In this document: positions 11,862 through 46,646 of the stretch, piece by piece
How the letters are laid out: every line of letters begins with the position of its first letter
Position numbering within the stretch: position 1 is the first letter of the stretch
NCBI GenBank assembly: GCA_949425635.1
Contig: CASPWD010000005.1
Coordinates: forward strand, 28,552 to 92,551
Direction of reading: 5' to 3'
From: an uncultured Bacilli bacterium
GTDB lineage: Bacteria > Bacillota_I > Bacilli_A > RF39 > UBA660
Length of the DNA stretch: 64,000 nucleotides
Translations under genes and position numbers: made by a program
Notes under the pieces: model-generated
Told to the model about the DNA's origin: nothing
The model's database searches: none
What the model saw: the letters and a program-made list of their open reading frames with translations, nothing else

Positions 11862-12080
11862 TTAAAAAAGAGTAATTCCTCCAAAGGACGAATTACTCGT
11901 GTTACCACCTTATTTTGTGTATTACTACACCTCTACATCTTAACGCGATTAACGGAATATCTTGTATACAATATTCAACTCCAAAGTTTCTTCAATTAGT
12001 TTATATACTCTTTTACACCAGACAAGAGTTCTCTATGATATAAGGGCTAATTTACTCTTCTTTTTCCTCGTTTTGTGGTT
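11862..12080 (-). promoter_or_regulatory. T-box riboswitch leader (Glu specifier) with intrinsic terminator
   Basis: Minus-strand read shows a stem I with AGAGA and 'CTGGTG' distal-loop elements. The specifier region is 'AATTGAAGAAAC' (GAA). The T-box sequence is 'AAGGTGGTAACACG' (complement of 11898-11912). It overlaps the terminator GAGTAATTCGTCCTTTGGAGGAATTACTC + T6 (11865-11898). Confidence 0.8.
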
Positions 12081-13873: not shown

Positions 13874-13950
13874 TGGTGATCCGTATGGGATTCGGACCCA
13901 TGTATGTAACCTTGAGAGGGTTATGTGTTAAACCACTTCACCAACGGACC
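13874..13950 (-). tRNA. tRNA-Glu (anticodon CUC)
   Basis: Hand-folded cloverleaf: GGTCCGT acceptor / ACGGATC-A-CCA, anticodon stem TAACC/GGTTA with loop CTCTCAA (CUC). The 5' half resembles Bacillus tRNA-Glu (GGnCCGTTGGT...). The T-loop reads TCCGAAT, so position 55 is C instead of the near-invariant U. A terminator hairpin lies at 13841-13868. Confidence 0.75.
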
Positions 13951-21594: not shown

Positions 21595-21670
21595 TGGTTA
21601 CCCCAGTAGGATTCGAACCTACGGAATGTCAGGGTCAGAGCCTGATGCCTTACCGCTTGGCGATGGGGTA
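21595..21670 (-). tRNA. tRNA-Gln (anticodon CUG)
   Basis: Cloverleaf: TACCCCA / TGGGGTA-A-CCA acceptor, D-arm GCCAAGCGGTAAGGC (as in Bacillus tRNA-Gln), anticodon stem TCAGG/CCTGA with loop CTCTGAC, and a T-arm GTAGG-TTCGAAT-CCTAC. A terminator hairpin lies at 21562-21582. Confidence 0.85.
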
Positions 21671-29661: not shown

Positions 29662-30208
29662 AATTTAAAATATTTTTTATTAACTCAAATTCTTCTTTAT
29701 GATTAATTATTTCATCATTAGCAATTAATGTAAGAAGTTCTTCTTTTGTAAACCAACGTGCTTCACTTACCTCTTCTACTTGTACTATTATATCTTCAAG
29801 GTCAACGTCGGATTTTATTAAATAGACATAGACAAATTCTTTACTATTTACTCCGTTGCTTAAAAATTCTTCTTTTATTTTATTTAAAAATTGAAATTCA
29901 AATTTTTCTGAGTCTAAACCTAGTTCCTCTGCTAATTCTCTTTTGGCAGAAATAAGTGGTTCTTCTCCTGTAGTAATATGACCACCAACTGTTATGTCCC
30001 ACATATTGGGATATAGTTTTTTATCTGGACATCTTTTTTGTAAAAGTATTTTTGTTTTATCTTCGTTAATTAGTAAAATGTGAATTGAGCTATGCCATAT
30101 TCCATTTTGATGAGCTTTATTTTTACTGATCGTTTCTCCTGTTTTTTCTCCTGTAGTTTCATCATAAATATCAATTATTTCTTCCATTTTTCTACTCTTT
30201 TCTTTCAT
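29660..30208 (-). CDS. Nudix hydrolase
   Basis: Complete Nudix box 'GGHITTGEEPLISAKRELAEELGL'. Overlaps the upstream gene by 4 nt. Confidence 0.75.
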   Translation of the reverse strand: MKEKSRKMEEIIDIYDETTGEKTGETISKNKAHQNGIWHSSIHILLINEDKTKILLQKRCPDKKLYPNMWDITVGGHITTGEEPLISAKRELAEELGLDSEKFEFQFLNKIKEEFLSNGVNSKEFVYVYLIKSDVDLEDIIVQVEEVSEARWFTKEELLTLIANDEIINHKEEFELIKNILN

Positions 30209-30999
30209 TTATTTTTTAGATTTTCTTCATTATATTGGCAAAGAACCGATGGACGATGACCACCTGTTTGAACCATTTCCTCTGTTAAAATTACCTTGTC
30301 AGCAATCGTTCTACGGAAAGCAGAATTTACTAATTTTTTATTTAGTAAAAGTTCATATACTTGTTTTAGTTCGCCTATCGTAAATTTTTCTGGCATTAAG
30401 TTAAAGACTATATCTGTATTATTTACTTTGTTTCGAAGTTCCATAATACCATCGATTATTAATTTAGCATGGTCAAAAGCAAGATTACTTTGAGAAGTCA
30501 CTTCATAATTATATTCATCACTTTTTATGTCGATAGGTATTTTCTTAACATCATAGTTAATCGTTTCTTCTCCATTAGTTAATACTATATGATAAAAGTT
30601 ATTTTCTTCTGTTATACATATATCAAACCAACAAGCATTTTCTTGTAGTTTTTCTACTAATAATGTACGATCAATTAATGCCATGTATGATACTGATATC
30701 ACTCTACCTCTAGGATCTCGATTTACAGCATCATTAACACTTAATTGTTGCATGTAGACATTAGTAAGACCTGTTTCTTTTGTTAAGACCCTATCACTAG
30801 CGATTTTAGAAGTTTCACCTGATTCAATAAATCCACCTGGAAGACACCACTTATCAACAAATGGTTCCTTATCTCTTTTAACAAGTAAAATACTAAAATG
30901 CTTTACAGGAAGAGAACGCGTGTTAGCGTTCTTTCGACTATCAATACCGAATATAAGTAAGTCAGTTGTGTATGCTACATTAAATTTTATTTTTTTCAT
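30205..30999 (-). CDS. NrtR-like regulator (degenerate Nudix domain + C-terminal winged helix)
   Basis: The Nudix box is degenerate: 'PGGFIESGETSKIASDRVLTKETGL', with RE changed to DR and EE to KE. The C-terminus 'LAFDHAKLI...LMPEKFTIGELKQVYELLLNKKL..SAFRRTI...RPSVLCQY' matches the NrtR wHTH pattern. Confidence 0.65.
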   Translation of the reverse strand: MKKIKFNVAYTTDLLIFGIDSRKNANTRSLPVKHFSILLVKRDKEPFVDKWCLPGGFIESGETSKIASDRVLTKETGLTNVYMQQLSVNDAVNRDPRGRVISVSYMALIDRTLLVEKLQENACWFDICITEENNFYHIVLTNGEETINYDVKKIPIDIKSDEYNYEVTSQSNLAFDHAKLIIDGIMELRNKVNNTDIVFNLMPEKFTIGELKQVYELLLNKKLVNSAFRRTIADKVILTEEMVQTGGHRPSVLCQYNEENLKNK

Positions 31000-31319
31000 A
31001 AATACATTCTCCCATTAACATCTAATCTAATCTCTTTAACGCTTACTCTCAAGTTTTGTAAAGCTCTTCTTTTAACAGTAGTCGGAAGCTTTGATGCGTT
31101 AATATCTGTTTCTATATTACAACATGGACATTTAAATGTATAGCAGAAATCTTGTTTAGAATACATAAAATCAGGTGTTTCTTCATCTTTTAAAATAGGT
31201 ATTGCATAAATATCTTCGGCTTCAACTTCTAATACTGCTCCACATCCACCACCATTAGTTCCTATTCCTAGACAATAATGTTTTATTGACCATTTTTTTC
31301 CTTCATTTAATACCTTCAT
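30996..31319 (-). CDS. Small Cys-rich (putative Zn-ribbon) protein, paralog 5 of 5
   Basis: MKVLNEG..W.I..YC...GGGCGAVLEVEAEDIY...YTFKCPCCNIET.I. Has its own AGGGGA RBS. Confidence 0.7.
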   Translation of the reverse strand: MKVLNEGKKWSIKHYCLGIGTNGGGCGAVLEVEAEDIYAIPILKDEETPDFMYSKQDFCYTFKCPCCNIETDINASKLPTTVKRRALQNLRVSVKEIRLDVNGRMYL

Positions 31320-31342
31320 TTTTATTTCCCCTAATTAATTTT

Positions 31343-31669
31343 TTATCTATACCCTAATTTTTTTAAGTACTTTAACTTTGTTCCATTGGCTTGTTCAATA
31401 TTAAGGATCGCTTTTCTAACTTCTATAGGTATTTCACTATCATCAATCAAAGTTTCTTTATTACAGCATGGACATTTAAATGTATAAGAGAAATCATTAT
31501 AATTGGAAAGTTCACTATTTCTCTTATCATTATTAGCTTTCTGTTGATAACTTAAATAGATATCCACAGCTTCTACTTCTAATAAAGCTTCGCAGCCACC
31601 ATCATTATTTTTATTAGCTATGCATTCTTTTTCAATCTTCCAAATAACTGGTTCTTTTACAACTTTCAT
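31343..31669 (-). CDS. Small Cys-rich (putative Zn-ribbon) protein, paralog 4 of 5
   Basis: I place the start at MKVVKEP, by analogy with the paralogs. Motifs 'W.IEKEC', 'GGCEALLEVEAVDIY' and 'YTFKCPCCNKET'. Confidence 0.7.
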   Translation of the reverse strand: MKVVKEPVIWKIEKECIANKNNDGGCEALLEVEAVDIYLSYQQKANNDKRNSELSNYNDFSYTFKCPCCNKETLIDDSEIPIEVRKAILNIEQANGTKLKYLKKLGYR

Positions 31670-31694
31670 TACCATCACCGCCATATATTAACAA

Positions 31695-32024
31695 TTATTT
31701 CTTAGATAAAGTTTTTTTATAATCACTCAATCTTTTTTTAGAAGATTCGGTGGTCTTTAATAACTTTCTCATTCTTTCTGGAATGTCATTTTTATTTATT
31801 AAATTTTCTTTTCCACAACATGGACATTTAAAAGCATAAGATTCATCAATGTAGTAATGTAGATATTCATCTCCTGAATTACTATAAGATTTTTGTTTAA
31901 AATTTAAATATATGTCTTCTAAAGAAACTTCTAATATTGCTCCACATCCAAGTTCACTATAATTATCAAGACATTCTTGTTGAATAGTCCAAGTAATTTT
32001 AATAGGTTCTTTTATAACTTTCAT
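31695..32024 (-). CDS. Small Cys-rich (putative Zn-ribbon) protein, paralog 3 of 5
   Basis: MKVIKEP...WTIQQEC...LGCGAILEVSLEDIY...YAFKCPCCGKEN. AGAGG RBS. Confidence 0.7.
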   Translation of the reverse strand: MKVIKEPIKITWTIQQECLDNYSELGCGAILEVSLEDIYLNFKQKSYSNSGDEYLHYYIDESYAFKCPCCGKENLINKNDIPERMRKLLKTTESSKKRLSDYKKTLSKK

Positions 32025-32043
32025 ACATTTACCTCTTTAATTG

Positions 32044-32376
32044 TTAACTTTTGCTTAACTTTTTTTGATTATTTGATTCCTTTTTTTCTTTTTCTTTATT
32101 CACTATGATTTTTCTTATTTTATCAGGAATATCATTATCTTTTATAGATGTTTCTTTTCCACAACATGGACACCTAAAAACAAATATCTGAACTTGATAA
32201 CGATAGCTTTCTCCATCACGTTCATCATATCCATATTGCATTTTCATCTTTGGATATATATCAGACATATCAACTTCTAATACTGCTCCACAACCATAAT
32301 CTCCAGTACTAACATCTGCTATACATTCTTTTTCAATACTCCAAGAAACTGGAACTGGTTCTTTTATTATTTTCAT
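32044..32376 (-). CDS. Small Cys-rich (putative Zn-ribbon) protein, paralog 2 of 5
   Basis: MKIIKEP...WSIEKEC...YGCGAVLEVDMSDIY...FVFRCPCCGKET. GGAGG RBS. Confidence 0.7.
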   Translation of the reverse strand: MKIIKEPVPVSWSIEKECIADVSTGDYGCGAVLEVDMSDIYPKMKMQYGYDERDGESYRYQVQIFVFRCPCCGKETSIKDNDIPDKIRKIIVNKEKEKKESNNQKKLSKS

Positions 32377-32395
32377 AGTAGGTATACCTCCAAAC

Positions 32396-32662
32396 TTATC
32401 TACTTAAACTTCTTCCTCTATTTCTTGCAAGATTTCTAACTCCTGAAGGAACTAATTTATCAGGAATATCAGTTTCGACTCCACAGCAAGGACATTTGAA
32501 TGTCCAGAAATAATCTGTATCTCCTGTGTAGTCTGTACTAGATGTTTGATAGATGTCTTCTTTTTCTACAGCAAGTAATGCACCACATCCGCCACCACCA
32601 TTTCCTACTCCAGTACAAGTTTGTTCTATTGACCATCCTGGTCCTTCTTTTAGCACTTTCAT
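32396..32662 (-). CDS. Small Cys-rich (putative Zn-ribbon) protein, paralog 1 of 5
   Basis: MKVLKEGPGWSIEQTC...GGGGCGALLAVEKEDIY...WTFKCPCCGVET. GAGGAG RBS. Confidence 0.7.
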   Translation of the reverse strand: MKVLKEGPGWSIEQTCTGVGNGGGGCGALLAVEKEDIYQTSSTDYTGDTDYFWTFKCPCCGVETDIPDKLVPSGVRNLARNRGRSLSR

Positions 32663-32679
32663 TTTATCATCTCCTCACA

Positions 32680-32749
32680 TAGTTACATTTTAATACTAAG
32701 TATCGTGTTTTGTCAATATACTTTGTTACATTTTTGTACAAAGTATATT
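32680..32749 (-). promoter_or_regulatory. Promoter with long palindromic operator upstream of the five-paralog operon
   Basis: On the minus strand, TTGACA (complement of 32711-32716) is followed after 18 nt by TAAAAT. A perfect 12-bp inverted repeat, AATATACTTTGT (32715-26) and ACAAAGTATATT (32738-49), has an 11-nt spacer and abuts/overlaps the -35. Confidence 0.55.
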
Positions 32750-32756
32750 TGATTCA

Positions 32757-32783
32757 TAAAAAAATCCCCTGCTTTTAGGGATT
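32757..32783 (-). terminator. Intrinsic terminator after the modification operon
   Basis: Minus-strand ATCCCTAAAAGCAGGGGAT followed by T7, 3 nt after the methyltransferase stop codon. Confidence 0.7.
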
Positions 32784-32786
32784 TTA

Positions 32787-33476
32787 TTATTTTACAAATT
32801 CGAACAAAACTATCTTATGTTCAATAAGTTCACTCTTAACTCTACTTGCTACCTCTACTCCATATATTTCTAAAAAACATTTTCGTGCTTCGTCTTTGGA
32901 ATCAAATTTAAAATAAGTATTAAATCTTTCCATGACTTTAAATCCGTTATTCAAAATCCAATTATTATAATCTTTAGTACGTGTATCTTTATCGTGGCCT
33001 CTTAAAGTTTCAAATTCACTATCTTCCTCATTTTCAATTAATATAATCTTTCCACCTGGTTTTAAGACTCTCTTTAAATCTTGCAAACATAATTCTCTAT
33101 CTCCTAAATCAGTAATTGTTCCAAGAACCCATGGTGATACAATTAAATCAATTGAATCAGAACATAACATTGTATCTTTTAAATTAGTATTAACAAAAAT
33201 TGAATTTTCTTTTCTAGACTTTATTTTAGCTTTTACTAGTTGATTGAATGATAAGTCTATTCCAATATATTTACTTGAGACATCTTCTAAAATTTGTAAA
33301 AACTTACCTGTACCGCAGCCTGCATCCAATACAATCTTATCTTTTGCTATTTTACTTAAATAATTTACAACTTTACTTTCACCATCTTCCGCTTTACTAA
33401 ATATTTCATAGTAATCATTATTTTCATAGTAGGCACTAGAATCTTTTAAGAGATTTTTTTCTTTCATCTTCCTCAC
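32787..33476 (-). CDS. Class I SAM-dependent methyltransferase
   Basis: Motif I 'VLDAGCGTGKF' and post-I 'GIDLS'. Overlaps the end of the ATP-grasp gene. Confidence 0.75.
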   Translation of the reverse strand: MRKMKEKNLLKDSSAYYENNDYYEIFSKAEDGESKVVNYLSKIAKDKIVLDAGCGTGKFLQILEDVSSKYIGIDLSFNQLVKAKIKSRKENSIFVNTNLKDTMLCSDSIDLIVSPWVLGTITDLGDRELCLQDLKRVLKPGGKIILIENEEDSEFETLRGHDKDTRTKDYNNWILNNGFKVMERFNTYFKFDSKDEARKCFLEIYGVEVASRVKSELIEHKIVLFEFVK

Positions 33477-34500
33477 TTCTTTCTTTTGTTTCTGGATATA
33501 TTAAATCCACCATGTACTTAGCAATATTCTGTGATTTACCAATTGCTGGGCGAAAATGCATATGTACTCCTGGTACTGTATTAATCTCAATAATACGATA
33601 TGTTCCCATATTTTGTTTTTTATCAATGCTATTTGTCATAAAATCAATTCCTACATAAGGAAGTCCAGGAAAGGCTTCAAGGACACGCATTCCAATGTCA
33701 ATAACACTTTCGTGGACCTTGTCAGTATAATCAACACATAGGCCACCCATTGCAACATTTGAATTCGGTCGTAAGTAAACTTTCTTTCCTAATTTAGGAA
33801 TAGTATTCATGCTTATACCATTTTTGTTCATGAATCTTAGCATTTCCTCATCTACTAGAATTTCACACAATGCATTAGTGCGTGGATGCATACGATAATA
33901 ATTTTCTTCAGCTATTAATTCCTTTATTGTCTTCTTACCATCACCGTAAACGTGAGCAGGATCTCTTAATAATACAGCATAATCTCTATTCTTAGTTATA
34001 AATACTCTAAACTCTTTTGATGCGAAATATTCTTCGATTAGAACTTTAGCTTTTTCACCTTTACTTCTTATTATCTTTGCTAACGCTTCTATAACATCTT
34101 CTTTAGTTCTAAGATCTGTATAAACATCGTAGCCATGTGAACCAAAAACTGGTTTTAAAACAACTGGACGGTTTAGAATTTCAAATGCCTTAAGAATATC
34201 TGATTTATAATTTGCACTAAAAACTGCACCAGTTGGAACACTGATTCCTGCATTAAACAATATTTCTTTAGTGATTCCCTTATCACCAGCAAGAATAGAA
34301 ACATTGTATGGCATTATTGAAGAATCACGATCATATATTAATTCATCATGTCCTTGATAAGATGCTTTTATTAATTCAAGTCCCTCATCTAAAACGTCAA
34401 CTTTAATTCCACGACGTAACATTTCATAAATTAAAATTTTTTGATTAGAATGTAAATTTTTATAAATATTTTCCATATCACCATCTACTTTCGCCATCAT
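33436..34500 (-). CDS. ATP-grasp ligase (GshF C-terminal / cyanophycin-synthetase-type)
   Basis: 'DKGITKEILFNAGISVPTG', 'VVLKPVFGSHGYDV', 'HVYGDGKKTIKELI', 'LRPNSNVAMGG..VDYTD.VH' and 'IIEINTVPGVHMHFRP' resemble the amino-acid-ligating ATP-grasp of GshF/CphA. An alternative start (ATG, complement 34474-34476) lies 1 nt after the stop of the upstream gene. Confidence 0.7.
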   Translation of the reverse strand: MMAKVDGDMENIYKNLHSNQKILIYEMLRRGIKVDVLDEGLELIKASYQGHDELIYDRDSSIMPYNVSILAGDKGITKEILFNAGISVPTGAVFSANYKSDILKAFEILNRPVVLKPVFGSHGYDVYTDLRTKEDVIEALAKIIRSKGEKAKVLIEEYFASKEFRVFITKNRDYAVLLRDPAHVYGDGKKTIKELIAEENYYRMHPRTNALCEILVDEEMLRFMNKNGISMNTIPKLGKKVYLRPNSNVAMGGLCVDYTDKVHESVIDIGMRVLEAFPGLPYVGIDFMTNSIDKKQNMGTYRIIEINTVPGVHMHFRPAIGKSQNIAKYMVDLIYPETKERSEEDERKKSLKRF

Positions 34501-35086
34501 GACTTTCAGATGAGTCGTATCCCCAACTTGAATAGGATGGAGAAACCTTCTTTTTTGGAGTTAATGTAAGTTTTTTTACTTCATTAATCTTTTCCTCAAA
34601 TTCATCACTTTCTTTCTCAATTTCACTAATTATACGGTCTTCCCTAATTTGTCTTAGTTTTTCTATTTGCTGTTTTCTCCTTTTTAAAGATTTGCTATAT
34701 TTTTCTCCTCTTCCTTGTAATTGTTCTAAAACAGGTATTGTTATTTCTAGTTGTTCGATTAAAGAATCAATATCTTCAAAGTTACTATACTTAGCTGGAA
34801 TACTTGAATCATCTAGCGTTCTATCTATTGTTGGTTTTGATGTAGTTTGTTTCGGTTGGCTACTTCTTATAATAGGAGCACACGATTCACTTGCTTCCCT
34901 ACTTTCAGAGGATACAAAACCTCTTACACTTCTTGGAGTTTGTGTAACACGACTTTCACTAGATTCATGAGATTCACTAGACCATGATGAAAATGGGGTG
35001 TAACTTCTACTTTCACTAGAACACCTACTTTCACTTGAATATCCGTAAGAATATCCTCTACTTTCTCCACTACGACTTTCACTCAT
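34478..35086 (-). CDS. SES[RH]-repeat protein with central coiled coil (unknown function)
   Basis: A strong AAGGAG RBS lies 10 nt upstream, inside the end of the previous gene. The N-terminal ~80 aa carry 8 copies of (S/G)ES(R/H/C), interspersed with GYSYGYS and SSWS. The middle is a K/E/R-rich helical segment. The C-terminus ends 'SSWGYDSSESHDGESRW'. Confidence 0.65.
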   Translation of the reverse strand: MSESRSGESRGYSYGYSSESRCSSESRSYTPFSSWSSESHESSESRVTQTPRSVRGFVSSESREASESCAPIIRSSQPKQTTSKPTIDRTLDDSSIPAKYSNFEDIDSLIEQLEITIPVLEQLQGRGEKYSKSLKRRKQQIEKLRQIREDRIISEIEKESDEFEEKINEVKKLTLTPKKKVSPSYSSWGYDSSESHDGESRW

Positions 35087-35092
35087 TTTAAC

Positions 35093-35929
35093 TCATCTCC
35101 TTAATATTATTACGCCATCACTTTTTTCTTCTTCTGGTTCTAGCGCACTTCTAAATCTTTTTGCTTCATAATTTTTAAAAACTTTATCTACTAAACTTAA
35201 ATTATCGATTTCACTTCTTGGATTACTATTTCCAATATCATAAAGGTAGGCCATATAAATTTTCTTAACTCTATCTAGAAATTTATTCATCAAATCCCTA
35301 TACTTTATAAGTCCATCTTTACCATACATCATTCCAATATAATCAGATATATTAGATAAAAACATATAATCAAAATATTCATCTAACTCTAAATTTTCTA
35401 AACTACAAGTAATATGTCTAATTTTTAATCCACTCAACTTATCTTTAACTAAATTATAACTATCTTCATTTAAATATAAATTCTGCCATACTTTACTATC
35501 TGGATTAAAATACTTACGATTAAAATAATGAGAATTTTTTAAGCTTCTTCCATCTTTATTAAACTCTTGTAATTTATCTAACCAAAACATTCTACTTTCA
35601 ACTGGCAAATCCAAACTGGAAATAATATCATAATCAAAGCTTATCTTTGTATCATAAAGAAGGAAATTAACAAAATCATTAAAATCTAACTTTTTTAATG
35701 CTGATAATTTCAAATCCATGTACTTCTCAGTAAGTGGATTAATATCAAACGTTGTAACATCAAGTCCACCTCTAGCTACTATATTTAAAATATGATCAGT
35801 TGAACCAGTAACTGTTATTACTTTTGTACCAGTTAAATCTAAATCATCCATATATCCTGCGATATTCTCCGTTGTAAAAGGATAAATACTATCAAATCTT
35901 TCCATAACATTTACCACTTCCTTTTGCAC
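35093..35929 (-). CDS. DUF3419 / BtaA-like SAM-dependent (3-amino-3-carboxypropyl-transferase-like) protein
   Basis: 'TKVITVTGSTDHILNIVARGGLDVTTFDINPLTEKYMDLKLSALKKLDFNDFVNFL' matches the BtaA-family pattern as I remember it (xVLxIxSxGxNxL....V.AVD.NP.Q..LLELK.AA...L....F..F). Recognised from memory only. Confidence 0.5.
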   Translation of the reverse strand: MQKEVVNVMERFDSIYPFTTENIAGYMDDLDLTGTKVITVTGSTDHILNIVARGGLDVTTFDINPLTEKYMDLKLSALKKLDFNDFVNFLLYDTKISFDYDIISSLDLPVESRMFWLDKLQEFNKDGRSLKNSHYFNRKYFNPDSKVWQNLYLNEDSYNLVKDKLSGLKIRHITCSLENLELDEYFDYMFLSNISDYIGMMYGKDGLIKYRDLMNKFLDRVKKIYMAYLYDIGNSNPRSEIDNLSLVDKVFKNYEAKRFRSALEPEEEKSDGVIILRR

Positions 35930-37352
35930 ATAAGAACTTAGTTAACTTTTTATCTTTTAATACTTCGTCAAGTGGATTATCTCGTAAAGATATATCAGAT
36001 ATACAGGTCTTATCTACTTCATGTACCCAAGGACATGGACTTACTTGACCAAAATTGTTTATATATAAAAACTTATCTCCAGCTGGACATCTATGAATCG
36101 TAATTGGTTGATGTCCAAAGTTATAATTCACTACAATTTTTCCTTTATATTTACTTCTAAGATCATCGAGTTCACTTATTAAATCTTCTGTATTTCTTTT
36201 CTTAAATAAACTTTTATCTTGTCCTTCAACAGGTTCCATAATAGAAAATATTATTTCATCAGCTGCTAAGCTACTAGAATCTCTTATTAATCCTTCCAAA
36301 TTTCTCTCATTATTAGCATGTATTACAGCTCCGACTCTTACCTTATTTGTTGAATTCTTTAGTAACTCAATTCCCCTAATTGTTCTTAGATAAGTATCTT
36401 TACCTCTAACTGCTTCATGTTCTAACCTATTTCCATCTAAACTAACATGAATCATTTTCAGTTTAAGTTCATTAAGTAATCTTACCTTTTCTTCAGTAAG
36501 AAGTGATGCATTAGTAGAAATATCTGTTATTAATTTACTACTTGCATATCTTAAAATATCTATAATATCTCTTATAATAAAAGGTTCTCCACCAGTTATC
36601 TTTAGATGTCTAAAATCATGTGTACAAAGCTCATCAATTATATGAAAACATTCTTCTGTAGTTAGTTCATTCGTAATCTTACTATTCTTATGGCAAGAAA
36701 ATATACAATAAGAACAACCATAATTACATTTATGAGTTATCTCCCAAATTGCCTTACCTCCACCATCATTAGGTAACGTAAATTTACAATCCATTCCATT
36801 AATAAAGCTTTGTATTAATTCCATATCTACGTTTGTATCATTATTAACAACTAAAACATTATTGGCTTCGAGTCTACTCCTATCAAATTCTTGTAATTTG
36901 AATCTTTGTAATATTTCCTCTTTTGATAGATCGCTATTCCCAAGTCTTTCTAATCTCTTATTAACACTAGTATCAACATAGATTATTTTCTCAAATAAAC
37001 TTTCCAAATTATCATTAAATATTAATGCCCAATCAACTAAAATTGTTTTATTATCAAACTCTTCAATATACATCATAAAATATCTATAAAGAACTTCCTT
37101 ATATCTATTCATATAATCTTCATTTGAATAAATAAACTTATTTAATATTCTAGAATCAACTTCATTATATAAATTTAATTCTGGTATAGCTCTCTTTAGC
37201 TCATTAACATAACTTTCATTCTTAAATAGACTTCTTCTAAATTCATCGACATCTATATAAATAAAATCTCTATTATCAAGCATTATCTTTCTAGCAATTG
37301 TTGTTTTACCAGCAGACATCCCACCAGTTATTCCTATTAATCTATTCTTCAT
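35892..37352 (-). CDS. Fusion protein: dephospho-CoA-kinase-like P-loop NTPase + radical SAM/SPASM domain
   Basis: N-terminal 'LIGITGGMSAGKTT' (CoaE-like Walker A) spans about 190 aa. Then 'CNYGCSYC' (CxxxCxxC) and 'ITGGEPF'. The C-terminus 'HRCPAGDKFLYINNFGQVSPCPW...C...C....C' is SPASM/twitch-like. I place the start at MKNRLIG. Confidence 0.75.
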   Translation of the reverse strand: MKNRLIGITGGMSAGKTTIARKIMLDNRDFIYIDVDEFRRSLFKNESYVNELKRAIPELNLYNEVDSRILNKFIYSNEDYMNRYKEVLYRYFMMYIEEFDNKTILVDWALIFNDNLESLFEKIIYVDTSVNKRLERLGNSDLSKEEILQRFKLQEFDRSRLEANNVLVVNNDTNVDMELIQSFINGMDCKFTLPNDGGGKAIWEITHKCNYGCSYCIFSCHKNSKITNELTTEECFHIIDELCTHDFRHLKITGGEPFIIRDIIDILRYASSKLITDISTNASLLTEEKVRLLNELKLKMIHVSLDGNRLEHEAVRGKDTYLRTIRGIELLKNSTNKVRVGAVIHANNERNLEGLIRDSSSLAADEIIFSIMEPVEGQDKSLFKKRNTEDLISELDDLRSKYKGKIVVNYNFGHQPITIHRCPAGDKFLYINNFGQVSPCPWVHEVDKTCISDISLRDNPLDEVLKDKKLTKFLCAKGSGKCYGKI

Positions 37353-38688
37353 ACCAACACATCCCATACTTTATTGGAACAAAAGCAGCTACTTTCATTT
37401 CCTTATCTTGATTGTTATATTTCATCCAATCTACATTATCTGTAATAATTTCGTACCCCTCTTTTTTTAAATTTTTAAGTAATAATTCTATTTCATGTTC
37501 TAAGTCCTTATTTTCTATATTAGGTTTATTTCCATGAATATACTGTGTCTTATTAATTACATTTCCGTTCTCTTCATAAACTGGAGTTCCATATCTATAA
37601 GCTAAGTAATGTAAACGAAGTTCGTGAGGTTTAATACTTTTAAGTAACTTTCTTGTTTTCTTTAAATCTTCTACCTTTGTTCCAGGATAATCTAAAATAA
37701 AACTAGTTCTTACTCTATAACCCATATCTTTTACTTCTTTAATTATCTCTTCTACTCTTTTAACATCCATCTCTTTGTTCATCATTTTTAATATCTTTGG
37801 ACTACCAGATTCTAAACCAAAATGAATCCATCGAAATCCAACTTTATACATTTCTTCTAACATTTCTGCATCATAACACTTAATGCTACACAAAGCTCCA
37901 AATAAACATTTTATCTTTCTTTTTCTAATAAGATTACAAATTCTCATCATACGTTTTTTATCAACAGTTGCATTATCATCTAAGAATATTATTTGCTTCG
38001 CTTTATATTTTTTTATCAATATTTCTATTTCATCTACAACTTCTACAGGTGACTTACCACACCACTTTCTAAAATAGTAAGGTGTTGTACAAAACTTACA
38101 TCCACCAATACATCCTCTAGAAGTGATTATCGTTCTTGTCTCCATATACTTAGAAATATCCACGAATTCTCTATCTATCATTGGAAGTTTATTGTAATTA
38201 TTTGGCATAAAGACTTGTTTAGTAATGACAACTTTCTCATTATCTTTATAAACAATATTAGGAATTTTATTTAACTTGTCCTTATCAAATACATTTTCTA
38301 TAACATCATTAATTAATTCTTCTGCAATTCCCTTTATAACTACATCAACACCATTTTCTAAAAACTTACTATAAGAGTATGTTGATGTTTTACCAACCAT
38401 AATGACTTTACTTTCTCTATTTAGATTCTTGATTATTTCAAATATATTATTTATTGCTTCACTTGTATGTAGTGGTAACTGATAGTCATAAACAAATACA
38501 ATAACATTTTTACTTTCTAGATATTCATTTATATTATTTTCCATTCTATTAACATCCATATCGATAACTCTTACATTATTAAATCTTTCTTTAACTACTG
38601 TAGCTATTTGTAGAACATCAAGTGGTTCAGCTAAGATTGTTTCATTTGTAAAAGGTTTATTAGGTGGGTTTACTACTAAAATATTCAT
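37342..38688 (-). CDS. B12-binding-domain radical SAM enzyme (class B-like)
   Basis: N-terminal Rossmann-like region of about 170 aa, then 'CIGGCKFC' and a TIM-barrel region. 448 aa. Confidence 0.75.
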   Translation of the reverse strand: MNILVVNPPNKPFTNETILAEPLDVLQIATVVKERFNNVRVIDMDVNRMENNINEYLESKNVIVFVYDYQLPLHTSEAINNIFEIIKNLNRESKVIMVGKTSTYSYSKFLENGVDVVIKGIAEELINDVIENVFDKDKLNKIPNIVYKDNEKVVITKQVFMPNNYNKLPMIDREFVDISKYMETRTIITSRGCIGGCKFCTTPYYFRKWCGKSPVEVVDEIEILIKKYKAKQIIFLDDNATVDKKRMMRICNLIRKRKIKCLFGALCSIKCYDAEMLEEMYKVGFRWIHFGLESGSPKILKMMNKEMDVKRVEEIIKEVKDMGYRVRTSFILDYPGTKVEDLKKTRKLLKSIKPHELRLHYLAYRYGTPVYEENGNVINKTQYIHGNKPNIENKDLEHEIELLLKNLKKEGYEIITDNVDWMKYNNQDKEMKVAAFVPIKYGMCWYEE

Positions 38689-38803
38689 ATTTATCTCTCC
38701 TCTTATTTACATTATAGTAATAACATACAAATAAATAAAATGAATATTTCTCATATACAACATTACTCGTAGTTATATAAAATCGGAGACTGGTTTCTAA
38801 CAT

Positions 38804-38828
38804 AAAAAAAGGACTATTAATTAGTCCT
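38804..38828 (-). terminator. Intrinsic terminator separating gene 38834-39547 from the radical SAM operon
   Basis: Minus-strand AGGACTAATTAATAGTCCT followed by T7. Confidence 0.8.
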
Positions 38829-38833
38829 ATAAA

Positions 38834-39547
38834 TTATTTAGTTAATTTTTTACTTTGAACACTTTCTAAAGAAAAATCTTTGTTTTCAAGAACTGTACAA
38901 GAAAAACCATATTTCTTAGCTATTTTATTTACTGACTCTGCAGTTACATTTCTTTTATCACCTTGATTAATTAATAAAATCAATTTATCTTCAAGTCTAA
39001 TAAGACCGCGGAATAGTCTTCCATCTACTTGGAATTCTGCTTCTTTGTCTTCGTCTAAATAGTTTAAATCATCACTTTCGACATCTGTTGTGTATCCTAA
39101 ACTTAGACTTCCTTCAAGAAATGGGAAATAATCAAAGCCTCTATTATTAGTTCTTGATATGCTATCAGCAAAAGCATCATCTACTACATATTCTTCTCTA
39201 GCGAACCATAATTCAGGAATGGTTTTATCGTCTTCATGTTTTTCTGATATTGGAGCAAAACTTACTTCATGATAAACAAAACCTTTATTATCTAAATAAG
39301 ATCTTATATCATTTGCTATGACTTCTCCACCACGCATTAACATTAATAAAATATCATTTTCTTCACTATATAAAAATGTGTCAAATTGTCTACTTACTAT
39401 TTTTTCTCCACCAAGATTAAAGTTACTTAAAACATTAGTAAAAATAATAATATCATTATCAGTTTTTATATTATCTAAAGCGGTTTTTAATTCACTTGGT
39501 AAAGATTGGATTGCCCATACATCTAAATTGCTATTCATACTAAACAC
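38834..39547 (-). CDS. Hypothetical acidic protein
   Basis: 237-aa ORF behind an AGGAGAG RBS. No motif recognised. Confidence 0.4.
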   Translation of the reverse strand: MFSMNSNLDVWAIQSLPSELKTALDNIKTDNDIIIFTNVLSNFNLGGEKIVSRQFDTFLYSEENDILLMLMRGGEVIANDIRSYLDNKGFVYHEVSFAPISEKHEDDKTIPELWFAREEYVVDDAFADSISRTNNRGFDYFPFLEGSLSLGYTTDVESDDLNYLDEDKEAEFQVDGRLFRGLIRLEDKLILLINQGDKRNVTAESVNKIAKKYGFSCTVLENKDFSLESVQSKKLTK

Positions 39548-39662
39548 TCTCCTATGTTCAATTTTTATGTGGTTTTAATATCTTAGCATATTATTTAAAA
39601 ACTAGCAAGTAAGGTGACAAAATATAACATATTGTTATAGATAAAAATGTAAATTATTCTAA

Positions 39663-40445
39663 TTAGAATAATCCCCATTCGGCAAATTTTTCGAAGCCTC
39701 CAATACTTTTAATATATTCTTTTGCTTCAGAAACTATGGAACTATAAGGCAAATTATCAACAAATTCATCGCCAATTGCACAACTTATTTTTACAACTTC
39801 GCCCGTTTCTTGAGCTTTTTTGAAAGCGTAAATATTTATAGAAACGTCAGCTTTGGATAAATCTTTGCCATGTAACCCGCCTCCTGTAATGCTGTCTGCC
39901 ATATCAGATCCTAATTTTCTGTTCGTTGCTCCTGAGTCGACATCTGTTCCTCCAGTCCATTCTCCTAAAGGGTTTATAACTGCATCAGGATAAATTGTTT
40001 TTAAATCATCTGTCTTGGCATTACTTTGACAAATTATAAGTTTATCATTATCTAAAATATATTTACCATCAAATGGATACTTTGAATAAATTTCTCTAGC
40101 AATTTTAGATAACTCTTTTTGCTCTTTCGTTAAAGGCACTCCTTTAAATATTCCATTATCTCCACATCTAATTTGATTTGTTTGGTTAGCTGCTAGGTGA
40201 ATATCTTGTTTTACAACATTTAAATCTAACTTAAGTGGACCAGCTATACGATTTACAATTTTTTGTACTTCATTTTCTGTAAAGTTTTCACTTGTTTCAG
40301 CAATAATATGACAATTTCCATGGCCTATAAGTACTTCTACAGCTATTTTACAATTGTCATTTTTAGAATAAGCAAGATCAACTAGAGCTCCAGCTATTCT
40401 ATCAGCCACCTTATCAGGATGGCTTGGGTTTACTTTCTCAATCAT
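39663..40445 (-). CDS. Compact S-adenosylmethionine synthetase (MetK)-like protein
   Basis: I place the start at MIEKVNP behind a GGAGG RBS. 'SHPDKVADRIAGALVD' aligns with MetK 'GHPDKIADQISDAVLD', 'CGDNGIFKG' with 'GDQGLMFGY', and 'NPLGEW..GG...DSGATNRKLGSD....ITGGGLHGKDLSKADVS' with 'NPTGRFVIGGP.GD.GLTGRKIIVDTYGG...HGGGAFSGKDPSKVDRS'. It is only about 260 aa, versus about 385-400 aa for canonical MetK. Confidence 0.65.
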   Translation of the reverse strand: MIEKVNPSHPDKVADRIAGALVDLAYSKNDNCKIAVEVLIGHGNCHIIAETSENFTENEVQKIVNRIAGPLKLDLNVVKQDIHLAANQTNQIRCGDNGIFKGVPLTKEQKELSKIAREIYSKYPFDGKYILDNDKLIICQSNAKTDDLKTIYPDAVINPLGEWTGGTDVDSGATNRKLGSDMADSITGGGLHGKDLSKADVSINIYAFKKAQETGEVVKISCAIGDEFVDNLPYSSIVSEAKEYIKSIGGFEKFAEWGLF

Positions 40446-40469
40446 TTTAAAATCTCCTCCTAACACATC

Positions 40470-40595
40470 AAATAAAAACACCCAAGATAACTTTCTTGAG
40501 TGTAAAAGCTATCTTATCGTACTAGCATTACCACCTAATTTAATAGGTTGGTGCGACTTCTTAGGGCTAGTCCCTCCATCGCTCTTTATAAGATG
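40470..40595 (-). promoter_or_regulatory. SAM-I (S-box) riboswitch with terminator
   Basis: Minus-strand read is CTTATAAAGAGCGATGGAGGGACTAGCCCTAAGAAGTCGCACCAACC...GGTGGTAATGCTAGTACGATAAG, showing the S-box blocks GAGGGA, GCCC, AAGAA, CAACC and GGTG.TAA. It is followed by the terminator CACTCAAGAAAGTTATCTTGGGTG + T5. Confidence 0.85.
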
Positions 40596-40669
40596 TTAAA
40601 TTCATTATACTATTTAAAGTATAAAATAACAATAACATTTTATTAAATAAGATTAACTTCTTTTGTTAT

Positions 40670-41269
40670 TTATTTTTTGGCTCTTCGCCTTTCCTCGAAT
40701 TCTAGCATAAATTCTGGGTTCGAACTATCTACAACTGGAATTCCATAATCTTCTGCTATACTTTCTATTTTACTAATAAATTCAGAATATTCATCTGGTG
40801 TAAAATATGTGAAATTTGATAACTTAATAAGATTACTAATCGTAGGAGTTCTATGATATGGAATACCAATTGCTATTACTTTTTCAAAAGGAATAAAATA
40901 ACGTGCTTGGTATTCATCAATTAAATCACTAAAACGTTTATCTGGATTATCTGTTCTTAACTTCATTAAATCGAAACGATTCATTGTACTAGCATCTTCT
41001 ATATATACTGGCTTTTCAACCTCTATATCATCTGAAATTATAAAACAAAAGTTATCTATAATATATTTATTAAATGCATTGTTTGGATGGCTTTTATAAA
41101 CTTCTTCTCCCATATATTTACATAAACTAATATAGTCACCTTCATTAAATCCTATTCTGTTAACTAACATTCTTTTTGATGCAGAACTAATTTCTCTATC
41201 TTTTAAAATATCTAATAGTTTTTCGTCAACTAAACCATTTACTACACCATGATAATACATAAATCTCAC
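40670..41269 (-). CDS. Hypothetical protein
   Basis: 199-aa ORF. No motif recognised. Confidence 0.35.
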   Translation of the reverse strand: MRFMYYHGVVNGLVDEKLLDILKDREISSASKRMLVNRIGFNEGDYISLCKYMGEEVYKSHPNNAFNKYIIDNFCFIISDDIEVEKPVYIEDASTMNRFDLMKLRTDNPDKRFSDLIDEYQARYFIPFEKVIAIGIPYHRTPTISNLIKLSNFTYFTPDEYSEFISKIESIAEDYGIPVVDSSNPEFMLEFEERRRAKK

Positions 41270-41340
41270 CTAATTTAATAATACCATATTTATAACGCTG
41301 AAGAAAATATAAAAGAAAAAAGTCCTTTATGGACTTAATA

Positions 41341-41826
41341 TTAAACATATAATAAGATATTTAATAGAATGGCAATAACTAAAACAATGGCAATCATACC
41401 TAATAATGTAAGTAATGATAAGAAAATTTTAGATATAATATTCATATTTGATGTACAAATTTTGAAAGTTAAACTGATACCTAAGAAAGCAAAGCAAACT
41501 CCAATTACACCATTAAAGAAATTTATAGCATTTAATACAACAAAGATATATGTCCATTTTGGAATATTTTCTATCATAGTATAATCTTTTTCAGTATCAT
41601 AATTTTGGCCATCAACAACTAAAATGTATTTATTAAAATTATAAACTAAATAGATTTCATGCTCTTCAACTGGTAGTTTATATTCAGTAATTACGCCCAT
41701 TAATGATTTATGTCTTAAAGGAGCTATTTTGAATTCTTCGTCATCAATTTTTATCTTATTAGATGAGATAAGTTTTATTTCATAATCTTTCTCTTCAGTC
41801 TTAACAATCCATTTCTTTTTTTCCAT
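41341..41826 (-). CDS. Hypothetical membrane protein (soluble N-domain + 2-3 TM)
   Basis: 161-aa ORF with a hydrophobic C-terminal half. Confidence 0.4.
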   Translation of the reverse strand: MEKKKWIVKTEEKDYEIKLISSNKIKIDDEEFKIAPLRHKSLMGVITEYKLPVEEHEIYLVYNFNKYILVVDGQNYDTEKDYTMIENIPKWTYIFVVLNAINFFNGVIGVCFAFLGISLTFKICTSNMNIISKIFLSLLTLLGMIAIVLVIAILLNILLYV

Positions 41827-46571: not shown

Positions 46572-46646
46572 GCAGGTGTAGTACAACGGTTAGTATGCGA
46601 CCTTGCCAAGGTTGAGATGGCGGTTCGATTCCGCTCACTTGCTCCA
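46572..46646 (+). tRNA. tRNA-Gly (anticodon GCC)
   Basis: Cloverleaf: GCAGGTG / CACTTGC-T-CCA, anticodon stem CGACC/GGTTG with loop TTGCCAA, and a T-arm GGCGG-TTCGATT-CCGCT. A terminator lies at 46657-46687. Confidence 0.85.

Follow-up and report, generated by a model that had tools for sequence, protein, structure and literature searches.

A mostly disordered ESR-repeat protein encoded in a conserved six-gene enzyme cassette of uncultured gut Bacilli, a probable substrate of an undescribed modification pathway

We find that a small, mostly disordered protein carrying paired Ser-Glu-Ser-Arg motifs (the ESR protein) is encoded within the same six-gene cassette in every locus long enough to judge (about 44), and it is probably the ribosomal substrate of an undescribed protein or peptide modification pathway. 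The order of the cassette is invariant: B12-radical-SAM enzyme, fusion of a CoaE-like kinase and a radical SAM enzyme, DUF3419 (BtaA-like) protein, ESR protein, ATP-grasp and class-I methyltransferase. The ESR protein founds an unnamed family with no Pfam or NCBIfam model and only 98 hits among 1.84 billion representative proteins, and no homolog was found outside such cassettes. An initial annotation had described about 10 such motifs at both termini around a coiled coil in a protein ending in Trp and encoded directly upstream of an ATP-grasp ligase, and this observation proved to be real. Its interpretation, which invoked graspetide esters, Ser phosphorylation or scaffold-peptide chemistry, is only partly supported by our data.

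Motif architecture of the ESR protein

In the window, the 64,000-nucleotide stretch of DNA analysed here, the ORF at 34478..35086 exists, but on the minus strand. It encodes 202 aa, beginning MSESR and ending DGESRW, and contains 7 ESR, 2 ESH and 1 ESC motifs, of which eight lie at residues 3-69 and two at residues 194-201. The motifs form five doublets around one long predicted helix: SESR-S-GESR, SESR-CS-SESR, SESH-ES-SESR, SESR-EA-SESC and SESH-D-GESRW. Nine ES[RH] tripeptides occur, against a maximum of 5 in 100,000 composition-preserving shuffles, and nine of the 11 ES[RH] tripeptides in all 111 ORFs of at least 60 aa in the window (22,109 aa) lie in this one protein. Tandem Repeats Finder reported no DNA repeat over the motif regions, its only rows being a 21-nt 2.4-copy row in the helix-coding part and a 10-nt row at the start codon. 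Moreover, Ser and Arg codons vary (AGT/TCT/TCG; CGT/AGA/AGG), so the repeat is kept at protein level, as the initial annotation had proposed, and the protein is a real, selected gene product.

AlphaFold2 with a 27-sequence alignment predicted residues 1-100 and 175-202 to be disordered (pLDDT about 40-55) and a single helix at residues 103-174 (pLDDT 83-94), whose first half has a clean heptad a/d pattern. Searches for known families with Pfam, NCBIfam and PADLOC on the window protein, with Pfam on 27 family members at E<=1, and with a profile search of the PDB gave nothing but weak, noise-level matches to coiled coils. A PqqA-like E-x-x-x-Y spacing was not consistent across members.

Across the family, the ESR protein is only 27-75% identical, yet M-(x)-E-S-R, the ES(R/H) motifs and the helix signature stay invariant, as do Y100, I106, D107, I110, L113, E114, P118 and other residues of the conserved region. 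Motif number varies from 0 to 10 (3 in the 117-aa member P0030), and whole units are duplicated, as in the family entries P0203 and L017. Of 532 gaps between successive motifs, 256 are exactly 5 or 6 residues. The tail SES(H/R)-D-(S)-GESRW is nearly invariant in 67 of 118 full-length members (subfamily A), which end in ES(R/H)W. Of the other 51, which have the same cassette, those with an intact C-terminus end in unrelated residues (KGFHR, KGLRR or NKLK; subfamily B), whereas some are truncated or mis-assembled records. In the window protein, Trp is the true last residue. An alternative genetic code in which TGA encodes Trp and extends the ORF was rejected, because the stop after the Trp codon is TGA here but TAA in five orthologous loci, and TGA is used as a stop by 6 of 61 long ORFs in the window.

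The six-gene cassette and its enzymes

The features of the cassette, all on the minus strand, are as follows.

38810..38828 (-), terminator-like hairpin (7-bp stem with 3 GC pairs, followed by a T run) that closes the upstream gene and marks the 5' boundary of the transcription unit
38697..38716 (-), putative -10 box (TATAAT, 38711-38716) and RBS (GAGGAG, 38697-38702) of the cassette
37342..38688 (-), gene 1, B12-binding radical SAM enzyme (448 aa, CIGGCKFC cluster motif), probably a C-methyltransferase
35892..37352 (-), gene 2, fusion of a CoaE-like P-loop kinase (residues about 1-180) and a radical SAM enzyme with a C-terminal auxiliary-cluster (twitch/SPASM-like) domain (486 aa; the longest ORF starts at 37367)
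35093..35929 (-), gene 3, DUF3419 protein (278 aa), of the family of the BtaA-like domain of betaine lipid synthase, probably a SAM-dependent alkyl (3-amino-3-carboxypropyl or methyl) transferase
35097..35102 (-), AAGGAG ribosome-binding site of the ESR gene, 10 nt before its ATG and overlapping the end of the DUF3419 gene
34478..35086 (-), gene 4, the ESR-repeat protein (202 aa)
34877..35086 (-), N-terminal arm of gene 4, predicted disordered (residues 1-70), with eight (S/G)ES(R/H/C) motifs in four doublets separated by Ser/Tyr/Gly-rich linkers
34565..34780 (-), central conserved amphipathic helix of gene 4, predicted (residues 103-174), starting at the family signature KY(N/S)N(L/F)(D/E)DIDxLIExLE
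34481..34513 (-), C-terminal doublet SSESHDGESRW of gene 4, ending in the genetically encoded Trp (subfamily A only)
33436..34476 (-), gene 5, ATP-grasp amide ligase of the cyanophycin-synthetase-G-domain / GshAB-C-terminal type (346 aa from the probable start; the longest ORF starts at 34500)
32787..33467 (-), gene 6, class I SAM-dependent methyltransferase (226 aa; the longest ORF starts at 33476)
32766..32781 (-), terminator-like hairpin at the 3' boundary of the cassette

The gene lies between DUF3419 and the ATP-grasp in 10 of 10 GTDB species genomes, 21 of 21 metagenome loci and all other contigs long enough to judge, in at least four different chromosomal contexts. Absence of the protein or its motif from orthologous operons had been set beforehand as a refuting condition, and we found that every orthologous operon long enough to judge carries the protein with the motif. 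The ESR gene is also translationally coupled to its neighbors: its RBS sits inside the end of the DUF3419 gene, and the probable ATG of the ATP-grasp lies 1 nt after the ESR stop codon in the window (34476) and 1 nt after, or overlapping, this stop codon in all loci (stop-N-ATG or TAATG junction). The cassette is a discrete unit of about 5.9 kb, bounded by the terminator-like hairpins and preceded by a putative promoter of its own, and orthologous loci carry TGTGCTATAAT at the same place. A strong promoter-like site (11 of 12 matches) for the next genes follows at 32716-32687. The leader is very short and holds no riboswitch that might reveal a ligand; the only Rfam match in 32300-41400 was a SAM riboswitch at 40511-40594, which controls a separate MetK-like gene.

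The enzymes are 46-92% identical across loci; four of the five are 59-92% identical to those of the window, and DUF3419 is 46-86% identical. Cassettes were confined to uncultured gut and digester MAGs labelled Bacilli, Mollicutes or Clostridia. A phage or mobile-element origin was rejected, as megablast of positions 30000-40000 gave no match to 50,697 phage records, GC content is uniform at about 27-30%, and the cassette lies among housekeeping genes in other lineages; it is chromosomal and compositionally native. No protease or exporter is conserved with the cassette. A C39-ABC exporter, an M13 peptidase with an ABC-2 exporter, and coaE-MBL-coaD are each adjacent in a single lineage only, and are not part of the system. 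Literature searches on DUF3419 with radical SAM or ATP-grasp enzymes, on dephospho-CoA kinase with radical SAM, on SESR and on RF39 with radical SAM found no description of this system.

For gene 1, Pfam gave Radical_SAM (6e-22) and B12-binding (4.4e-07), and orthologs are 59-92% identical. For gene 2, Pfam gave CoaE (1.4e-15), Radical_SAM (9.5e-21) and SPASM at 21.4 bits against a cut-off of 21.5. The closest solved structure to its radical SAM part is SkfB (6efn, 3.6e-15), and SkfB is a peptide-modifying enzyme. The P-loop, DxD, CX3CX2C and four C-terminal Cys (CX12GX4C plus two further Cys) are conserved in 119 homologs; at least 309 homologs were found, and all of the 120 listed are fusions. 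The kinase domain aligns full-length to dephospho-CoA kinases (PDB 1uf9 and 1jjv), with 60.9 bits against a cut-off of 65.55 for NCBIfam TIGR00152, and its P-loop and DxD are conserved, although the HP and PLL.E motifs seen in the aligned CoaE structures are replaced (YRY and WALI.ND). A stand-alone CoaE coexists with it at one locus, L019. It appears to be a divergent dephospho-CoA-kinase paralog. The initial annotation was right that a P-loop kinase domain is present, but its suggestion of a generic protein Ser kinase is not supported: this fold family phosphorylates a nucleotide 3'-OH, and Ser phosphorylation is therefore possible but not the default reading.

Gene 3 matches PF11899 at 5.5e-11, with 42.7 bits against a gathering score of 28.2, but only profile positions 6-131 of 385 are covered. 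The same family assignment was found in all orthologous loci, and DUF3419 has been linked to BTA1 (PMC10685587). The ATP-grasp of gene 5 is indeed of the amino-acid-ligase type, as initially annotated. All 18 NCBIfam hits are amino-acid or peptide amide ligases, including cyanophycin synthetase (1.9e-67), GshAB (1.4e-58) and N-acetylglutaminylglutamine synthetase, and PDB hits are CphA1, CphA2, GshAB, RimK, LysX and Ddl (cyanophycin synthetase 7wac, 4e-46; GshAB 3ln7, 8e-39). No graspetide or microviridin ligase family or structure appeared, even at E<=10. PADLOC gave only generic radical SAM (pVip 7e-20), methyltransferase and kinase similarities, and the viperin NCBIfam model scored 59 bits against a cut-off of 180; hence, a defence-system reading was rejected.

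Possible roles of the ESR protein

We consider it somewhat more likely than not that the ESR protein is the dedicated, ribosomally made substrate of the five enzymes encoded around it, whether as a precursor or as a carrier. Our analysis establishes the motif architecture, the family, the invariant synteny with translational coupling and the enzyme family assignments, whereas the role of the ESR protein as substrate, the identity of any modified residue and every chemical step, including 3-amino-3-carboxypropyl transfer, are inferred. In this model, the disordered arms present 1-8 N-terminal copies of (S/G)-E-S-(R/H), plus 2 C-terminal copies in subfamily A, and these motifs, mostly doublets with Glu-to-Glu spacing of 6, would be the modification sites. 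The conserved 70-residue amphipathic helix would be a docking or oligomerisation handle, playing the role of a leader or follower peptide placed C-terminal to most cores. The invariant synteny, the translational coupling, the discreteness of the cassette as a unit, substrate-like evolution of the protein relative to its enzymes, the doublet unit, the predicted disorder and hence accessibility of the arms, and the small and exclusive family are in accordance with this model. Moreover, three enzymes have protein- or peptide-modifying nearest relatives: MCR glutamine C-methyltransferase and ApyD; SkfB, StsB and MftC; and RimK, the CphA G domain and GshAB.

Enzyme roles can be suggested from family membership only. 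The B12-radical-SAM enzyme would C-methylate an sp3 carbon, and the twitch/SPASM-type radical SAM domain would abstract a hydrogen atom from the peptide. The fused CoaE-like kinase would phosphorylate a hydroxyl, either the Ser side chain or a nucleoside 3'-OH generated in the same reaction, and the BtaA-like protein would transfer a SAM-derived group (3-amino-3-carboxypropyl or methyl). The ATP-grasp would make an amide bond, and not an ester cross-link, by adding an amine or amino acid to a carboxylate, which may be the Glu side chain of ESR, a newly installed carboxylate or a C-terminus, and the class-I methyltransferase would finish the product. However, every enzyme hit lies far below the trusted cut-off of any characterised family, and these reaction types are only guesses made without direct evidence of modification. 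Because no protease or exporter is conserved, the product probably stays on the protein or acts inside the cell.

Other features weigh against a substrate role. Pfam at E<=0.01 found no PqqD-like RiPP recognition element in any cassette protein, and at 117-231 aa with a coiled-coil-like helix the protein is long for a RiPP precursor. In addition, the kinase domain belongs to a small-molecule (nucleotide) kinase family and the nearest relatives of the ATP-grasp mostly ligate small substrates, so that part or all of the enzymes could act on a metabolite, for instance a nucleotide, CoA-like or SAM-derived one. The ESR protein would then be a non-substrate partner, such as a coiled-coil scaffold that assembles the enzymes, a regulator, or a storage or binding protein for the product. 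This accessory reading is favored by the full-length CoaE paralogy, by the one lineage in which the cassette directly follows stand-alone coaE, an MBL-fold gene and coaD in the same operon, by the hit of the radical SAM domain to prokaryotic viperins 'associated with kinases', by the lack of a Pfam match to a recognition element and of a conserved protease or exporter, and by a helix that looks like an oligomerising coiled coil. We nevertheless consider it unlikely, since an invariant short motif repeated a variable number of times in a disordered arm is typical of enzyme substrates and not of scaffolds, the viperin and CoaE hits lie below the family cut-offs, the CoaE HP and PLL.E motifs are replaced, the closest solved radical SAM relative modifies a peptide, and the coaE/coaD adjacency occurs in only one lineage.

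Alternatively, the ATP-grasp may load an amino acid or amine onto a carboxylate of the ESR protein, either the C-terminal Trp or the Glu of the terminal GESRW, and the other enzymes may elaborate this tethered building block before its release, as the initial annotation suggested from the encoded C-terminal Trp. The ATP-grasp belongs to the clade that extends alpha-carboxylates of amino acids or peptides (CphA G domain, GshAB, N-acetylglutaminylglutamine synthetase, with weaker hits to RimK and LysX), and its gene is translationally coupled to the codons of the nearly invariant tail. However, members without an ES[RH]W end still have an ATP-grasp 67-72% identical to that of the window, neither a PEARL/LanB-like enzyme nor a releasing hydrolase is conserved, and the conservation of up to eight N-terminal motifs is left unexplained. 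Trp-scaffold chemistry as the core function is therefore not supported, and this carrier reading is doubtful.

Least likely is the graspetide reading, also taken from the initial annotation, in which the ATP-grasp cross-links Ser hydroxyls to Glu carboxylates within or between ESR motifs to form omega-esters. Ser and Glu are invariant and regularly spaced, in doublets 6 residues apart, and an ATP-grasp gene is adjacent and translationally coupled. However, all significant hits of this enzyme are to amide-forming amino-acid ligases, Arg/His is as invariant as Ser and Glu, which an ester cross-link does not explain, and four further enzymes are equally conserved. Graspetide chemistry is not supported.

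An unlikely but more novel possibility, which our data do not rule out, is that the ESR doublets are converted on the protein into a previously unknown post-translational modification or peptide-derived cofactor, by a route resembling diphthamide or betaine-lipid synthesis. Such a route would combine 3-amino-3-carboxypropyl transfer by the BtaA-like enzyme, N- or C-methylation and ATP-grasp amidation or cyclisation with radical SAM chemistry and a nucleotide-type phosphorylation, and would give a housekeeping-like modified protein specific to uncultured, small-genome gut Bacilli.

If the ESR protein is the substrate, it represents a new precursor family with a new recognition logic, in which an internal helix is flanked by many short cores arranged as doublets. 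Its enzyme set would then have no described precedent as a combination, comprising a CoaE-kinase/radical-SAM fusion, a BtaA-like transferase acting on a protein, and a cyanophycin/GshB-type ATP-grasp acting in a ribosomal pathway. The high conservation of the cassette, its chromosomal and compositionally native character and its confinement to these uncultured gut and digester MAGs point to an important but unknown piece of the physiology of these bacteria.

Comparison with described systems

In graspetides (microviridin-type omega-ester or amide peptides), as here, an ATP-grasp gene sits next to a Ser/Glu-rich ribosomal product, but the present ATP-grasp has no detectable relation to graspetide ligases. 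LysW amino-group carrier proteins and pearlin (PEARL) scaffold peptides match in concept, as small ribosomal proteins with a conserved C-terminal motif containing Trp or Glu on which an ATP-dependent ligase starts the chemistry. However, the ESR protein is predicted disordered plus one helix, without a Zn-ribbon carrier fold, and ends in Trp, Arg or Lys instead of an acidic EDWGE-like tail with terminal Glu. The LysX_arch model scores only 37.7 bits against a cut-off of 275.6, Pfam and NCBIfam scans of all cassette proteins show no LanB-like (lantibiotic-dehydratase-like) domain, and the tail is absent from subfamily B.

ATP-grasp enzymes that add amino acids to carboxylates of proteins or peptides include RimK on ribosomal protein S6, the cyanophycin synthetase G domain, the GshAB C-terminal domain and tubulin TTLL glutamylases. 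Gene 5 belongs to the same clade (RimK-family 2.3e-12), and its candidate acceptor is likewise a disordered, Glu-containing tail. In contrast to the three-domain cyanophycin synthetase (N, ATP-grasp G and Mur-ligase-like M), it is a stand-alone enzyme of 346-354 aa, without the CphA N and M domains or the GshA domain, and only the G domain is matched (residues 70-340 to 210-476 of 862), with 228 bits against a cut-off of 850.

In BtaA/BtaB betaine-lipid synthesis and diphthamide synthesis, 3-amino-3-carboxypropyl transfer from SAM is followed by N-trimethylation and then ATP-dependent amidation. The cassette similarly holds a DUF3419 (BtaA-family) protein, a class-I methyltransferase and an ATP-dependent amide ligase, and the Ser side chain is a primary hydroxyl, like the acceptor hydroxyl of diacylglycerol. 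However, only the N-terminal third of the DUF3419 profile is matched, the acceptor would be a protein and not a lipid, no evidence distinguishes 3-amino-3-carboxypropyl from methyl transfer, and diphthamide enzymes belong to other folds.

Protein C-methylation by B12-radical SAM enzymes is represented by the best NCBIfam hits of gene 1, MCR glutamine C-methyltransferase (1.7e-35) and the RiPP enzyme ApyD (1.5e-34), which according to the family names act on protein or peptide Gln or Asp residues. Their scores are about one third or less of the cut-offs (122.6 against 360 bits; 119.4 against 750).

Repeat-motif precursors of radical SAM/SPASM maturases include the His-Xaa-Ser repeat protein HxsA with HxsB/C and the triceptide precursors GrrA/XyeA. 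The radical SAM enzyme of gene 2 falls below the cut-off of every named maturase family (best hit 93 bits against cut-offs of 265-725; HxsB, 6.5e-15, 54.8 bits against 370) and is fused to a CoaE-like kinase. The motif (S/G)ES(R/H) has no aromatic residue, so the three-residue cyclophane chemistry of triceptides does not apply. Moreover, four further enzymes are obligatory, the precursor has a conserved 70-residue helix, and the motifs come as doublets. What is shared with these systems is a ribosomal protein that carries a short tripeptide-scale motif repeated a variable number of times and is encoded next to a radical SAM enzyme with a C-terminal auxiliary-cluster domain.

The ESR-repeat protein and its family

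Analysis of the ORF at 34478-35086 showed that it lies on the minus strand and encodes a protein of 202 aa, which starts MSESR and ends DGESRW. It holds 7 ESR, 2 ESH and 1 ESC motifs, each usually preceded by Ser or Gly, eight of them in residues 3-69 and two in residues 194-201. The motifs form five doublets, namely SESR-S-GESR, SESR-CS-SESR, SESH-ES-SESR, SESR-EA-SESC and SESH-D-GESRW. Nine ES[RH] tripeptides are far beyond chance, since a maximum of 5 was obtained in 100,000 shuffles of the same composition, and they are 9 of the 11 such tripeptides in all 22,109 aa of ORFs of at least 60 aa in the window. No DNA-level tandem repeat was found, and the Ser and Arg codons vary. An AAGGAG site lies 10 nt before the ATG, inside the end of the preceding gene. 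AlphaFold2 with a 27-sequence alignment predicted disorder for residues 1-100 and 175-202 and a single confident helix at 103-174, the first half of which has a heptad a/d pattern. Hence, the observation made in the initial annotation, that about ten such motifs lie at both termini around a coiled coil and that the protein ends in Trp, is confirmed, with the strand corrected and the doublet arrangement added.

Data from homology searches indicate that the protein belongs to a real, unnamed family. A word-indexed search found 48 relatives, all unnamed, nearly all of which start M(S/Y/C)ESR and end (S/G)ESRW, whereas a profile search of 1.84 billion representative proteins found only 98 hits. 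Pfam, NCBIfam and PADLOC have no model for it, and a PDB profile search and a lenient Pfam scan gave only coiled-coil noise. The alignment shows invariant M1, E3, S4 and R5, near-invariant further ESR columns, and a conserved helix domain beginning KY(N/S)N(L/F)(D/E)DIDxLIExLE. Across 118 full-length members the motif number ranges from 0 to 10, with a median of 6 and with 3 in the 117-aa member P0030. Of 532 gaps between successive motifs, 256 are exactly 5 or 6 residues, so the unit is a doublet. Moreover, some members carry exact duplications of a doublet-plus-linker unit, for example the family member P0203 and the ESR protein of locus L017.

Two architectures were distinguished among these members. 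Subfamily A (67 of 118) ends in ES(R/H)W, like the window protein. The remaining 51 do not, and those with an intact C-terminus (subfamily B) start MESR or MESN, have only N-terminal motifs and end in KGFHR, KGLRR or NKLK; some of these carry an extra YEDWLKT..W..GGLSS..EMH insert. The C-terminal Trp of the window protein is genuine, since the stop codon after it is TAA in five orthologs. However, it is not universal.

Genomic context of the cassette

In every locus long enough to judge, the gene order is the same: B12-binding radical SAM, CoaE-like kinase fused to radical SAM, DUF3419, ESR protein, ATP-grasp and class-I methyltransferase. This covers 10 of 10 GTDB species genomes, 21 of 21 metagenome loci and the contigs retrieved by exact protein look-up. 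The hosts are uncultured MAGs from mouse, human (Hadza), rabbit and wolf gut and from a digester, labelled Bacilli, Mollicutes or Clostridia. Flanking genes differ between lineages, and comprise tRNA synthetases and GatCAB; the nusA-infB-truB region with coaE and coaD; purA and rpsU; or the genes of this window. Across the loci, four of the five enzymes are 59-92% identical to those of the window and DUF3419 is 46-86% identical, whereas the ESR protein is only 27-75% identical outside its motifs. In some MAGs or contigs single cassette genes are split into two ORFs, DUF3419 in locus L008 (7173-7996) and the B12-radical SAM gene in loci L017 (4390-5720) and L042 (5106-6448). These are frameshifts, either assembly errors or occasional pseudogenisation of the cassette.

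The window has about 27% GC throughout, and within it the cassette is bounded by terminator-like hairpins and has its own short promoter and RBS region without a riboswitch. The features of the cassette and of its surroundings are as follows:

10187-11839, ORF downstream of a T-box leader
11881-12077 (-), T-box leader (RF00230, 124 bits)
13877-13950, 21598-21670 and 46572-46643, tRNA genes
30996-32662 (-), five tandem paralogous genes for Zn-ribbon-like proteins of 88-113 aa
32687-32716, strong promoter-like site of these five genes
32766-32781, terminator-like hairpin bounding the cassette
33436-34500 (-), longest ORF of the ATP-grasp gene, with the probable start at the ATG at 34476
34478-35086 (-), ESR-repeat protein
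38810-38828, terminator-like hairpin bounding the cassette
38834-39547 (-), ORF of 237 aa
39663-40481 (-), MetK-like ORF of 260-272 aa
40478-40503, terminator-like hairpin directly upstream of the MetK-like ORF
40511-40594 (-), SAM riboswitch (RF00162, 63.6 bits)
40670-41269 (-), ORF of 199 aa

The longest ORF of the ATP-grasp gene, which is also the public gene call, probably starts 8 codons too early. The start is most likely the ATG at 34476 (MENIYKNLHS...), 1 nt after the ESR stop codon, and the same stop-N-ATG or TAATG junction occurs in all loci. This start gives 346 aa, as in all subfamily-B loci.

Upstream of the cassette, the SAM riboswitch and its terminator-like hairpin precede an unusually short MetK-like ORF, which keeps SHPDK, CGDNG and GGGLHGKD-type motifs but matches only the N-terminal MetK domain in Pfam and NCBIfam. 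It is conserved at about 82% identity in close relatives, and may be a compact SAM synthetase that supplies the SAM-hungry cassette downstream. The two ORFs of 237 and 199 aa that flank the MetK-like gene have no Pfam, NCBIfam or PADLOC match, and the 199-aa one is conserved (56-61% identity) in close relatives only. The five tandem paralogs share the pattern GCGA.LEV ... FKCPCCG, and the one tested has no Pfam, NCBIfam or PADLOC match. They are present only in the closest relatives (loci L002-L004, L008 and L009) and so are not part of the conserved cassette.

Enzymes encoded with the ESR protein

Gene 1 has Radical_SAM and B12-binding domains, and its best NCBIfam hits are MCR glutamine C-methyltransferase and the RiPP enzyme ApyD, both far below cut-off. 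The N-terminal domain of gene 2 aligns full-length to dephospho-CoA kinases (TIGR00152, 60.9 bits against a cut-off of 65.55; PDB 1uf9 and 1jjv). Its P-loop and DxD motif are conserved, but the HP and PLL.E motifs of the aligned CoaE structures are replaced. The C-terminal part of gene 2 is a radical SAM domain with CX3CX2C and four conserved C-terminal Cys (CX12GX4C and two more), for which SkfB is the closest solved structure. At least 309 homologs of gene 2 exist, and all 120 listed are the same fusion at 57% identity or more, the only name that any carries being 'dephospho-CoA kinase [Mollicutes bacterium]'. In one lineage (loci L019 and L020, 4750-6538 in each) a stand-alone coaE, an MBL-fold gene and coaD (GSFDPFTNGH) directly precede the cassette with overlapping gene ends, which shows that the fused CoaE-like domain is a paralog. 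This arrangement also hints at a link to CoA or adenosine-3'-OH chemistry, but it was not seen in other lineages.

Gene 3 passes the Pfam threshold for DUF3419, the family that includes the BtaA-like domain of betaine lipid synthase (PMC10685587). Gene 5 matches the cyanophycin synthetase G domain (1.9e-67; PDB 7wac, 4e-46), the GshAB C-terminal domain (1.4e-58; PDB 3ln7, 8e-39) and N-acetylglutaminylglutamine synthetase (3.6e-45), whereas RimK, LysX and Ddl hit only weakly. No graspetide ligase appeared even at E<=10. Thus, the suggestion in the initial annotation that the ATP-grasp joins Ser and Glu side chains as in graspetides fails on the identity of the ligase, and we regard it as very unlikely. 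Gene 6 is a generic class-I methyltransferase.

The ESR protein as candidate substrate and its relation to known systems

The best-supported reading is that the ESR protein is the dedicated substrate of the cassette, and we consider this somewhat more likely than not. It is supported by invariant synteny in different chromosomal contexts, translational coupling on both sides, a short invariant motif repeated a variable number of times in a disordered arm, fast divergence everywhere else in the protein, and peptide- or protein-modifying nearest relatives for three of the enzymes. The helix is the only other conserved element, and is the natural candidate for enzyme docking or for oligomerisation. 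By homology the ATP-grasp should form an amide on a carboxylate rather than an ester cross-link. The universal carboxylate is the Glu of ESR, and the C-terminal carboxylate is a candidate only in subfamily A. A coherent but unproven scheme is SAM-derived alkylation of the motif by the BtaA-like enzyme, methylation, amide formation, and radical SAM chemistry with a coupled phosphorylation. While the motif arrangement, the family, the conserved gene order with its coupled junctions and the family membership of the enzymes were established here from sequence, the role of the ESR protein as substrate, the residue that would be modified and each chemical step, including the alkyl transfer proposed for the DUF3419 protein, are inferred.

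No protease or exporter is conserved with the cassette, and a C39-ABC exporter, an M13 peptidase and coaE/coaD are each adjacent in only one lineage. In loci L017 and L022 the ESR protein (gene at 10001-10642 of L022) has a duplicated 38-aa unit (ESR doublet plus LSYADWLKT.P....GG), and a Peptidase_C39-ABC exporter (12640-14694 of L022) lies 300 nt downstream of the cassette, so this lineage may cleave at the double glycine and export the product. In loci L014, L015 and L023 an ABC-2 exporter and an M13 peptidase lie upstream instead. Since no protease or exporter is conserved across lineages, the product is more likely a modified intracellular protein or a cofactor-like species than a secreted bacteriocin.

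The interpretation offered in the initial annotation is partly supported. Its idea of a scaffold peptide elaborated at the C-terminus corresponds to a carrier or scaffold reading, a LysW- or pearlin-like system centred on the GESRW tail, which fits the ATP-grasp clade and the invariant tail of subfamily A. However, this reading fails for subfamily B and lacks the defining enzymes, and we consider it unlikely. Alternatively, the ESR protein may be an accessory protein while the enzymes work on a nucleotide- or CoA-like metabolite. This reading is doubtful, but is kept alive by the CoaE-like domain, by the single coaE-coaD adjacency and by the absence of an RRE match in the Pfam scan of the cassette proteins at E<=0.01.

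Full-text literature searches found no description of the protein family, of a CoaE/radical-SAM fusion, or of DUF3419 in a peptide pathway, and the system is of interest because it can be tested directly. The general principle of a ribosomal repeat-motif precursor next to a radical SAM maturase is already known from Hxs, Grr and Xye, whereas the motif, the precursor architecture and the enzyme combination found here are not.
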